This document shows, one piece after another, positions 22,162 to 23,488 of a DNA stretch of 23,488 bases. The notes under the pieces were generated by a model. The model was not told the origin of the DNA, did not search any database, and saw only the letters and a program-made list of their open reading frames with translations. Within the stretch, counting starts at the first letter, position 1; the number at the start of each line of letters is the position of its first letter. Location of the stretch: positions 1 through 23,488 of the IMG/VR virus record IMGVR_UViG_2671180903_000008. The stretch is one strand, 5' to 3'. Origin of the DNA: a virus. Lineage: Duplodnaviria; Heunggongvirae; Uroviricota; Caudoviricetes. Position numbers and translations under genes: made by a program.

Positions 22162-22365
22162 ATGAGAAATCATACCACACACCCGCAAGGGCGGGACTCG
22201 CACGACCTGAATAAATACATCTGGCGTTTTATCGCCCTGAGCACGGCACAACCGCGCGTGATTACCATTGAGGCCACCAGCGAACAGGAAGCACGCCAGC
22301 AATCCCCGGCTGGCTGCGTGATGGTATTCGCTGCCCGTATTCGTCAGGAGGTGCGCCATGATTAA
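22162..22365 (+). CDS. Hypothetical small protein, 67 aa (first gene of small-gene operon)
   Basis: ATG at 22162 with GAGG 5 nt upstream; same frame as the tail of the spurious 388-aa ORF; stop overlaps next start (ATGATTAA). Confidence 0.5.
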   Translation: MRNHTTHPQGRDSHDLNKYIWRFIALSTAQPRVITIEATSEQEARQQSPAGCVMVFAARIRQEVRHD

Positions 22366-22570
22366 TCTGTCACTTACTGACCTTAACCGCATTCAGTTTC
22401 GTGAGAAATTCACAGGGCAGCTACTGGTCAATGTGGATAAAGGTCGCGTGGTGTGTAATTACCACTTACCAGATGAAGCAATTGTCGCCACAAGGGAATC
22501 ATTACAGGAAATCACAAAACGTGCCGGAATGATTAACACGAATATTCAGGGGATGCTTTATGCACAATAA
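22358..22570 (+). CDS. Hypothetical small protein, 70 aa
   Basis: Start overlaps upstream stop; stop overlaps next start. Confidence 0.5.
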   Translation: MINLSLTDLNRIQFREKFTGQLLVNVDKGRVVCNYHLPDEAIVATRESLQEITKRAGMINTNIQGMLYAQ

Positions 22571-22799
22571 AACCACACCGGACGCAGCCGCCGAAGCCAT
22601 CAAAACGCTGATGCACGCGCTGATTGATATTTCTGTTATCGCGGACAGGGCACATAAGCACGCCACCAGCGAAACAGAATATGCCGGTGCTTTCGTTCCT
22701 CACTCACTGGCTGTCATGCAATTTAGTGCTGATACGGCGCTGAATGAGGCCAAAGCTATCCTGATTGCTGATTGTGAAAATGGGGGGGGTTATGCGTGA
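22560..22799 (+). CDS. Hypothetical small protein, 79 aa
   Basis: Translationally coupled to both neighbours. Confidence 0.5.
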   Translation: MHNKTTPDAAAEAIKTLMHALIDISVIADRAHKHATSETEYAGAFVPHSLAVMQFSADTALNEAKAILIADCENGGGYA

Positions 22800-23025
22800 T
22801 GATCGTTTTAATTCCCTGAAACAGGAATTTTCCGGCGTTCCTGATGATGCGGCTGATGCGCTTTCGTCAATGCCAGAACTTATTAGAGCGGCTTTTTTCT
22901 TACTTTCCACGAGAGAATATAAATCAACGGGGCTTGATGTACTGAATATCGCCGCCGATTATGCGGAATATGTGGCAGAGGCGCGTTATAGAAGAAAATT
23001 TCCTGAGGATGTAAGCCATGCGTGA
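22793..23025 (+). CDS. Hypothetical small protein, ~77 aa
   Basis: ATG at ~22793 overlaps the upstream stop (ATGCGTGA); the ORF-track entry 22765-23025 begins at an earlier in-frame Met. Confidence 0.45.
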
Positions 23026-23251
23026 TATTTACCACCAAACAATAGACCGCGCATTTCTTGCACTTTCTCACAGTGAAAACATGCTGGAAATATTGCGCAT
23101 ATGGCTTGAAACACTTGGCGACAATGAACGCGACAAACAAAAATCAAGAATTGCCACGGCATTAATAACGCTTCTTGAGCCTGTAATAATGGAACTGCAA
23201 GAAATAGATCTATTGCACGACAGATATAAAGAACAGCACACCGGAGAATAA
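23018..23251 (+). CDS. Hypothetical small protein, 77 aa
   Basis: Start overlaps upstream stop (ATGCGTGA); stop overlaps next start (ATGA). Confidence 0.5.
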   Translation: MRDIYHQTIDRAFLALSHSENMLEILRIWLETLGDNERDKQKSRIATALITLLEPVIMELQEIDLLHDRYKEQHTGE

Positions 23252-23488
23252 AAATAATGAAACTTAAATATTCTGGCTTAACTGCCAGTGGCAACACTCA
23301 CCCTAAATTTACGCGCGGTGATATTTACCGCGACCAGTACGGCGGCACGGTAATGATTAAGGGCGTGGAAGAACGGCGCGTAACCTACCGCCGTGAAGGT
23401 TACGAATATGATTGCGTGATGCCTGTTTATCAGTTCCGGCGTGATTTTTCTCTGGTACAGACCGCGCCGCATAACGTGCCCACCAGCA
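23248..23488 (+). CDS. Hypothetical protein, 5' portion; open to the window end
   Basis: ATG at 23248 overlapping the upstream stop; my translation (MKLKYSGLTASGNTHPKFTRGDIYRDQYGG...) has no stop through 23488; absent from the ORF track presumably because it lacks a stop. Confidence 0.45.
   Translation, partial: MKIMKLKYSGLTASGNTHPKFTRGDIYRDQYGGTVMIKGVEERRVTYRREGYEYDCVMPVYQFRRDFSLVQTAPHNVPTS

Follow-up and report, generated by a model that had tools for sequence, protein, structure and literature searches.

The DNA analysed here is a stretch of 23,488 nucleotides (the window; positions 1 to 23,488 of IMG/VR virus record IMGVR_UViG_2671180903_000008). Its last part, 22162–23488 on the + strand, is assigned with a probability of about 0.8 to the promoter-proximal part of the early (regulation/replication) operon of a phage-inducible chromosomal island (PICI) that lies beside roxA and shares its integrase and AlpA with Sp7, the EcCIEDL933-type island. 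This part is filled end to end by six consecutive open reading frames (ORFs), of which the first belongs to an Icd-like family and the last is an ortholog of the virulence regulator gene rgdR.

22162–22365, + strand: ORF1, 67 aa, first gene of the operon
22358–22570, + strand: ORF2, 70 aa
22560–22799, + strand: ORF3, 79 aa
22792–23025, + strand: ORF4, 77 aa counted from its ATG (the longest-ORF rule places the start at a TTG, 22765)
23018–23251, + strand: ORF5, 77 aa
23257 to past 23488, + strand: ORF6, at least 77 aa, cut by the window end after the first 77 of 99 codons

ORF1 and ORF2 overlap by 8 nt (ATGATTAA), ORF2 and ORF3 by 11 nt (ATGCACAATAA) and both ORF3/ORF4 and ORF4/ORF5 by 8 nt each (ATGCGTGA at both junctions); ORF5 and ORF6 do not overlap and are separated by a 5-nt spacer (TAA AAATA ATG). 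An earlier interpretation made from the letters alone (the sequence-only reading) had each ORF overlapping its neighbour by 4–11 bp, in part through ATGA-type junctions; four of the five junctions agree with the overlap (8, 11, 8 and 8 nt), the ORF5/ORF6 junction does not, and no plain ATGA junction occurs within the array of the window. A Shine–Dalgarno-like purine run precedes every start by 5–12 nt and lies inside the preceding ORF, and a scan of 22162–23488 returned no terminator-like site on the + strand. The array therefore has the layout of a coupled operon, with overlaps or a short spacer, internal Shine–Dalgarno sequences and no internal terminator. Since stop and start sites overlap and each Shine–Dalgarno sequence lies within the preceding gene, the small proteins probably arise from a single transcript by coupled translation. 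Many small ORFs of related arrays (and the window at 22545–22570) end in the peptide motif Q-[EG]-V-x-H-[DA], which is the in-frame translation of the Shine–Dalgarno sequence, the spacer and the next ATG (CAGGAGGTGCGCCATGA...).

ORFs of at least 60 aa on the + strand cover 100% of the region; in 1000 dinucleotide-preserving shuffles coverage averaged 31% and never exceeded 87%, so that the array goes beyond chance. In codon alignments of up to 36 related loci the median ratio of nonsynonymous to synonymous substitution rates (dN/dS) was 0.25–0.41 per ORF (ORF1 0.26, ORF2 0.27, ORF3 0.25, ORF4 0.31, ORF5 0.27), and the variable columns fell mostly at third codon positions in all six ORFs. The same ORFs are annotated in RefSeq genomes by the Prokaryotic Genome Annotation Pipeline (PGAP). 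A 1.39-kb stretch was matched in 1837 of 5426 complete Escherichia coli genomes (in 426 the match spans at least 80% of the stretch), and the six ORFs all remain in frame, with intact copies in hundreds of genomes. On this evidence the six ORFs are real genes, as had been claimed earlier from their coupled-looking junctions, and the operon is incomplete in the window, as had also been noted, ORF6 running off its end. Judged from the related loci, the count of six is specific to this allele: in most relatives ORF3 and ORF4 are one 154-aa ORF.

The assignment to an island draws on the genes at its left end, two of which are the following.

19338–20588, + strand: island integrase (tyrosine recombinase), at the left end beside roxA
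20953–21141, + strand: AlpA-family regulator (Pfam PF05930 Phage_AlpA, 5.4e-17)

Lambdoid prophage late genes are followed in the window by potB, potA, pepT and roxA and then by the island. The window integrase is 100% identical in amino-acid sequence to those of Sakai Sp7 (L004), ESDR8 (L002) and O55:H7 (L003), the PGAP label on the relatives' integrases being tyrosine-type recombinase/integrase, and the window AlpA is 100% identical to the alpA product of Sakai Sp7. In Gram-negative PICIs the left end carries an integrase and, downstream of it, a regulator of the alpA family, and this arrangement is present here; Sp7, moreover, occupies the same roxA/phoQ site as the window island. The placing of the array in the early region of a satellite or island, proposed in the sequence-only reading, is correct. 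Sp7 corresponds to OI-51/CP-933C of EDL933 (PMC3378721). Its gene content matches that of EcCIEDL933, the 15.4 kb prototype of the capsid-forming PICIs (cf-PICIs), which carries int, alpA, rep, capsid, protease, portal, connectors, HNH, TerS and TerL and represents an island type shown to be a functional, mobilisable satellite (10.1101/2022.09.08.507074). AlpA is a known activator of Gram-negative PICI cycles (PMC6092414; 10.1101/2022.09.08.507074), and the requirement for it has been published for EcCICFT073 (PMC6092414) and EcCIEDL933 (10.1101/2022.09.08.507074).

A protein panel was run on the window and 38 fetched loci, giving 39 arrays (individual loci are referred to by L numbers). The order was constant: Int, AlpA, a variable segment, the Icd-like gene, small ORFs, RgdR, a replication gene, the single-stranded DNA-binding protein (SSB), PerC and a late module. 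The variable segment after AlpA often holds a minus-strand YlcI-type gene, and ORF2, ORF3 and ORF4 are present or absent in differing combinations. Relatives with 99–100% identical proteins from ORF2 to RgdR continue with a RepA-type helicase (whose start is overlapped by rgdR by 4 nt in L003), an 83-aa ORF, SSB, a PerC-family regulator and a capsid module, and the island ends before phoQ. The replication gene of relatives encodes either a RepA-type helicase or a primase, which are unrelated proteins, and this early operon is followed by one of two unrelated late modules, an HK97-type cf-PICI packaging set (L001, L002, L014) or a Phage_cap_E (lambda-E-type) capsid with a decoration protein and TerS (L003, L007–L013). 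The window itself is a mosaic: similarity to O55:H7-type islands starts at ~22324, in the conserved 3' end of ORF1, and continues rightwards at 99.7% identity, and to the left of this point the window resembles ESDR8-type islands. The conserved Icd-like C-terminus and the ORF1/ORF2 junction together resemble a recombination joint. A DNA search of deposited phages gave essentially no match, so that these are island genes and not phage genes; a search of genome contigs with RgdR returned only two loci.

ORF6 carries DUF4222 (PF13973, 8.3e-25, 86.6 bits, cut-off 27, residues 16–68), is 85.7% identical to ECs1581 (RgdR) over the 77 aa present and 100% identical to the O55:H7 copy over the same 77 aa, and contains the RGD motif (R20-G21-D22). 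On the combined grounds of DUF4222, 86% identity to ECs1581 and RGD at residues 20–22, ORF6 is an rgdR ortholog. RgdR (ECs1581) is a 99-aa OI-51 protein whose deletion lowers type III secretion (PMC3378721); it activates LEE1, of the enterocyte effacement locus (LEE), independently of Ler and represses motility (PMC3378721; review PMC10877973). Activation of LEE1 and type III secretion and repression of motility were shown for ECs1581 and for the ortholog C1493, the RGD motif matters for activity, and the protein bound the LEE1 promoter fragment and also control DNA, which is DNA binding without demonstrated specificity (PMC3378721). A PDB sequence search with RgdR gave nothing meaningful. In many island copies of the RgdR orthologs (L021–L038) the RGD arginine is replaced by H, P, N or S, and the following G-D-I-[YF] is kept. 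A DUF4222 frame also lies between cro/cII-like genes and replication gene O in Klebsiella phage ST101-KPC2phi6.3 (L039, 3501–3641); it is unannotated on its strand, the record annotating an opposite-strand ORF.

ORF5 matches phrog_2196 (4e-42), a PHROG family without assigned function, and is helical-looking. Its identity to ECs1580, the gene before rgdR in Sp7, is 26% (pairwise E 1e-8), and a gene of the ORF5/ECs1580 family, the distant form included, lies directly upstream of rgdR in 33 of the 39 arrays; in all of the arrays examined the next gene after rgdR is the replication gene.

ORF1 matches NCBIfam NF033153 ('host cell division inhibitor Icd-like', 1.4e-19, 69.9 bits, cut-off 25, residues 19–62) and phrog_6196 (1.7e-45) and shares 51% identity with ECs1577, the gene with which the Sp7 operon begins. 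A tblastn search of 50,697 phage records with ORF1 (E ≤ 1) gave a single match, the 16.5-kb 'induced prophage' vB_KppS-Ant; P1 was not matched, its presence in the collection being unchecked. A 388-aa ORF in frame with ORF1 (21199–22365, + strand) was considered as a long Icd-like protein and was rejected as a shadow ORF, being Cys- and Ser-rich and not protein-like. The 388 codons lie antisense to the YlcI cassette, whose gene has strong family matches; despite its unusual length the frame is probably a shadow. Sakai ECs1576 and the PGAP 'Icd-like pseudogene' in O55:H7 are frames of the same kind. Real 178-aa Icd-like proteins that share the first 18 residues were found in L019, L027 and L035.

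The operon is preceded by a putative control region with three elements.

21759–21956, − strand: YlcI/YnfO-family small protein gene, divergent from the operon (NCBIfam NF041551 3.4e-16; Pfam DUF3950; phrog_949 3e-26)
21984–22063, no strand assigned: putative promoter/operator region with a perfect −35 TTGACA at 22025–22030
22093–22124, + strand: leader hairpin, followed by the invariant TCTAACCA at 22125–22132, ~30 nt upstream of the ORF1 ATG

The gap between the YlcI-type gene and ORF1 is 205 nt. Within it the 10-bp palindrome TGTGCGCACA is found at 22031–22040 and 22054–22063 and its variant TGGGCGCACA at 21984–21993, the latter adjoining a minus-strand promoter-like site (22021–21993). Palindromes of the TGTGCGCACA type were confined to loci that share the window's YlcI allele (≥98% identity). 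Where the YlcI allele is another one (32–53% identity), the −35 keeps its position and repeats lie at equal offsets from it, but they are of other sequence, direct or inverted. Repeats that co-vary with the allele are what is expected of a cognate repressor/operator pair, and the YlcI-type protein is a probable repressor of the island, with the palindromes as its operators. This suggests an island-specific repressor/operator module of a kind undescribed for Gram-negative PICIs. The leader hairpin is GC-rich, is not followed by a U run and precedes the Icd-like gene in 32 of the 39 sequences; 84% of the alignment cells are paired, compensatory changes occur in three of the 11 pairs, and the hairpin is predicted in the minimum-free-energy folds of all seven alleles folded. 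It matched no Rfam family at E ≤ 1. No C4/CI-type immunity RNA was found in an Rfam scan of 20500–23488, in which the sole match (sau-6072, E 0.08, below threshold) was taken as chance.

ORF2–ORF5 had no Pfam or NCBIfam match and, among PHROG families, matched only those without assigned function (phrog_340 at 1e-23 for ORF2; positions 1–76 and 78–154 of the 154-residue family phrog_2512 for ORF3 and ORF4, respectively; also phrog_24341 for ORF4). PADLOC, which covers defence systems and not anti-defence and is therefore a weak test of an anti-defence role, gave no family at E ≤ 0.1 for ORF1–ORF5, RgdR, the ORF3–ORF4 fusion and two minus-strand ORFs. ORF2, the one of ORF2–ORF5 searched against PDB sequences, had no meaningful match. 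Its family comprises 29 clusters, the named ones all from Escherichia, and occurs in short (66–71 aa) and long (118–122 aa) forms with the N-terminal ~55 aa in common; the window ORF2 is of the short form, and its AlphaFold2 model was unusable [predicted local distance difference test (pLDDT) 49]. In some ORF2 relatives (P0385, P0387) the tail is frame-shifted where a short G run lies at the ORF2/ORF3 junction. A HMMER search of 1.84 billion representatives with the ORF3–ORF4 fusion gave 53 representative clusters at 50% identity, none functionally informative; clusters with a name come from Escherichia. The AlphaFold2 model of the fusion is all-helical (pLDDT 68; N-terminal half 75–81), with ORF3 predicted to be a helical hairpin, and Foldseek with this model, the only fold search run, returned nothing below E = 1 in PDB or BFVD. 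ORF2, ORF3 and ORF4 have no counterpart in Sp7.

The junction between ORF3 and ORF4 contains a homopolymer.

22782–22789, + strand: G8 tract at the 3' end of ORF3, 2 nt before the ORF4 ATG, followed by TTATG

This is the only G run of at least eight in the 23.5-kb window; it can serve as the Shine–Dalgarno sequence of ORF4, and its length sets whether ORF3 and ORF4 are fused or split. An artificial G7 fusion used as a query matched many E. coli proteins of 154–155 aa at 77–99% identity. In the DNA of 19 loci the tract states were G7TT (seven), G8T (four) and G10TT (one), all of which are fused and give 154–155 aa, and G8TT (four) and G9TT (three), which are split; the window is G8TT, and G9TT gives an 86-aa ORF3. 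Loci with 0–2 differences from the window in 1110 flanking nucleotides carry G7TT, G8TT or G8T, so that tract length is polymorphic, and the reading frame altered, on near-identical sequences, as in phase-variable loci. At the protein level, tails expected of G6, G11 and G12 were also seen on the same allele background. The 79-aa ORF3 was found in exactly the window's form on 912 contigs, and 86-aa G9 forms on 140 and 152 contigs, too many to be random sequencing errors. From 899 complete genomes carrying the junction an evenly spread sample of 60 was taken, and the 44 full-length matches were read by subject length: 24 were one nucleotide shorter than the window (annotated as a single gene), 12 had the window length (two genes), seven were one nucleotide longer and one was two nucleotides longer. 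In relatives of less than 50% identity the N and C halves are mostly separate proteins and the CENGG/poly-G junction is absent, and the ORF4 ATG is kept at the junction in the aligned fusion proteins. Recurrent fusion, and the single protein of most relatives, suggest that ORF3 and ORF4 act together. We infer two cooperating genes in which the Shine–Dalgarno sequence at the junction turned into a mutable G run; of its three frames, one reads through to a fusion. That the tract is a heritable, satellite-borne switch, slippage toggling between a 154-aa fusion and two coupled proteins and shifting the Shine–Dalgarno spacing of ORF4, with ORF2–ORF5 being undescribed effectors against helper phage or host defences, is a speculative and unlikely proposal; if it were true, clonal populations of one island would differ in their interaction with host and helper.

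The operon would work as follows. Transcription would start at a promoter ~130 nt upstream of ORF1 with the −35 TTGACA at 22025, a promoter covered by the three copies of the 10-bp palindrome, which would be matched to the divergent YlcI/YnfO-type repressor allele. On helper induction AlpA, loss of the YlcI-type repressor or both would open this one promoter; AlpA control of the window operon, switched by the helper, is assumed by analogy. A single mRNA would begin with the conserved hairpin and continue through the Icd-like gene, ORF2, ORF3, ORF4, ORF5 and RgdR, ribosomes passing from ORF to ORF through the overlapping stop/start sites. Its products would be the Icd-like protein, between two and four small accessory proteins, the protein of the ORF5 family, RgdR and lastly the replication proteins. 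The Icd-like gene, the ORF5 family and RgdR would form the conserved frame of the operon, ORF5 and RgdR being tied to the replication gene that follows. ORF2, ORF3 and ORF4 are most likely exchangeable accessory cassettes which act on the host or the helper phage during induction.

Several points weigh against the assignment or parts of it. The window stops inside ORF6, so that the replication and packaging genes of this copy, and hence its type, lie beyond view, and relatives vary in both. The sample of loci is biased, most having been retrieved via ORF2, the ORF3–ORF4 fusion or RgdR, and so are the frequencies drawn from it. 'Icd-like' is a family label only, no similarity to P1 Icd having been detected. 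On the + strand the −10 is weak (TTTGAT, picked by eye) and the promoter scan did not call it; the transcript, the promoter use and the coupling are read from the sequence of this allele, and binding of the palindromes by the YlcI-like protein is argued from co-variation only. ORF2–ORF5 lack detectable homology to proteins of known function, their accessory role towards host or helper being argued from position and mosaicism.

Two other accounts of the small proteins were weighed. ORF2–ORF5 could be anti-defence or helper-interference effectors which counter host immunity or redirect the helper on induction, an account which overlaps with the early-operon assignment rather than excluding it and which we regard as possible though doubtful. 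They lie in the early operon of a satellite, ORF2–ORF4 are mosaic among otherwise similar islands, as accessory early genes of phages often are, and the families are narrow (29 and 53 clusters, the named ones from Escherichia) and under purifying selection; the homology searches, and the fold search with the ORF3–ORF4 fusion, gave nothing in its favour, PADLOC being the weak test described above, and in Sp7 type III secretion, the only phenotype assayed, required no more than the rgdR-containing segment (PMC3378721). It is rather unlikely that ORF5 and RgdR, possibly with other small ORFs, are instead accessory replication proteins (origin-binding or helicase-loading), the effect on the LEE being a side effect of a DNA-binding protein. 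The position of rgdR directly before the replication gene in every array, with a 4-nt stop/start overlap in four annotated relatives whether the gene encodes a helicase or a primase, fits such a role, as do the ORF5-family gene before rgdR in 33 of the 39 arrays, the DUF4222 frame between cro/cII-like genes and gene O in a Klebsiella temperate phage and the binding of RgdR to DNA, the control fragment included (PMC3378721). Neither protein resembles known initiators or loaders, however, the same RgdR type pairs with two unrelated replication proteins and no replication phenotype has been reported for rgdR; the arginine of RGD needed for LEE activation is, in addition, not conserved across the family (H, P, N, S).

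Whether the genes are what they seem was considered from two further sides. The ORF3/ORF4 split could be a mere frameshift lesion, or a homopolymer sequencing error, in a 154-aa gene: the fused form is the commonest among the sampled complete genomes (24 of 44, against 12 of 44 of window length) and persists across alleles down to 77% identity, and G8 runs are error-prone in long-read assemblies. This is unlikely in view of the split forms on 912, 140 and 152 contigs, which are far too many for random error, of the mostly separate half-proteins in relatives below 50% identity, of the ORF4 ATG kept in aligned fusions with the G run at the Shine–Dalgarno position, and of the purifying selection still acting on ORF4. 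The ORFs could also be relics of a cryptic P4-like prophage in decay, functionless today; in favour of this, OI-51/Sp7 was first described as a highly degraded prophage consisting mainly of P4 remnants (PMC3378721). It is very improbable, since later work established that islands of this type function as satellites and can be mobilised (10.1101/2022.09.08.507074) and decay is contradicted by the kept frames, the dN/dS of 0.25–0.41 and the intact copies in hundreds of genomes.

The sequence-only reading had recognized none of the six proteins, had proposed remote-homology and structure searches and had named clear homology to characterised P4/PICI replication or regulatory proteins as evidence against its view. 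Its first statement has to be corrected, ORF1 belonging to NF033153 and ORF6 to DUF4222/RgdR; homology to a characterised regulatory protein exists for ORF6 and at the family level only for ORF1. The homology searches thus named ORF1 and ORF6 and gave no named family for ORF2–ORF5, and the structure search with the model of the ORF3–ORF4 fusion gave no fold match (Foldseek, PDB and BFVD). The roles which it had suggested for ORF2–ORF5 (anti-defence, helper interference, regulation) are neither supported nor excluded. The array is for the most part a correctly observed but ordinary, already annotated part of a known satellite family, one gene of which has been studied experimentally. The island family is widespread in E. 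coli, and in enterohaemorrhagic E. coli rgdR feeds into the control of LEE type III secretion; as the last small gene of an early operon that is probably dependent on AlpA and the repressor, it would link a virulence regulator to satellite induction. The YlcI-type protein with its allele-specific operators is a candidate for the 'missing' repressor of Gram-negative PICIs. The four uncharacterised proteins and the poly-G fusion/split polymorphism are targets for satellite biology, and current understanding is not overturned.

One further ORF of the island lies downstream of the YlcI-type gene.

21516–21701, − strand: 60-aa ORF with no family match

This ORF is conserved in L002 and has 40% identity in L034, and a terminator-like hairpin (21749–21723) lies between it and the YlcI-type gene. 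Further upstream, 1–13300 and 13426–14118 hold the late genes of the lambdoid prophage (for terminase, portal, capsid, tape measure and tail tip J), which adjoin potB; the type III effector genes espK, espN and nleL are found at the same prophage end in relatives.

The array was compared with five known systems. Like the window, the nin and early-left regions of lambdoid phages consist of short, packed ORFs on the same strand, with gene gain and loss and exchange at gene boundaries. Their genes are different, and the window element is a satellite and not a phage. Homopolymer contingency loci, which are uncommon in E. coli, resemble the window in its G8 at a coding junction, present as G7–G10 on otherwise identical sequences with a changed frame, and at the population level the poly-G tract appears to behave like a contingency-locus repeat; unlike in such loci, the frame change converts a fusion into two adjacent ORFs, the second with its own start, and no gene is switched off. 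The immI operon of P1 (c4 RNA–icd–ant) likewise has a small Icd-type first cistron in a coupled operon behind a structured leader, and translation of icd has a role in the expression of ant. It differs from the window in that ORF1 has no BLAST-detectable similarity to it, the leader has no Rfam C4 RNA match and the downstream genes are not antirepressors. The target of P1 Icd is FtsZ, and the Z ring is thereby kept from forming (PMC11897509).

EcCICFT073, a classical Gram-negative PICI likened here by description, has the rightward order int–alpA–early operon–replication of the window; its AlpA, which the helper phage induces, switches on the downstream genes (PMC6092414), and its RgdR ortholog, C1493, is likewise an activator of type III secretion (PMC3378721). 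OI-51/CP-933C/Sp7 shares with the window the roxA site, identical Int and AlpA and the plan of ECs1577–ECs1582, with an Icd-like gene first, small ORFs, the ORF5-family gene ECs1580, rgdR (the RgdR proteins being 86% identical) and a replication gene. It differs in ECs1578 and ECs1579, which have no counterpart in the window, in the absence of ORF2–ORF4, in its Icd-like allele, which is only 51% identical to ORF1, and in having a primase, whereas the closest relatives of the window over ORF2–RgdR have a RepA-type helicase and some of them a different capsid module; unlike Sp7, the window also has the upstream YlcI-type gene with its own putative operators. Judged by its genes, the window is a mosaic relative of the Sp7/OI-51/EcCIEDL933 early region, with the same ends and different middle cassettes, and this is the closest known system.

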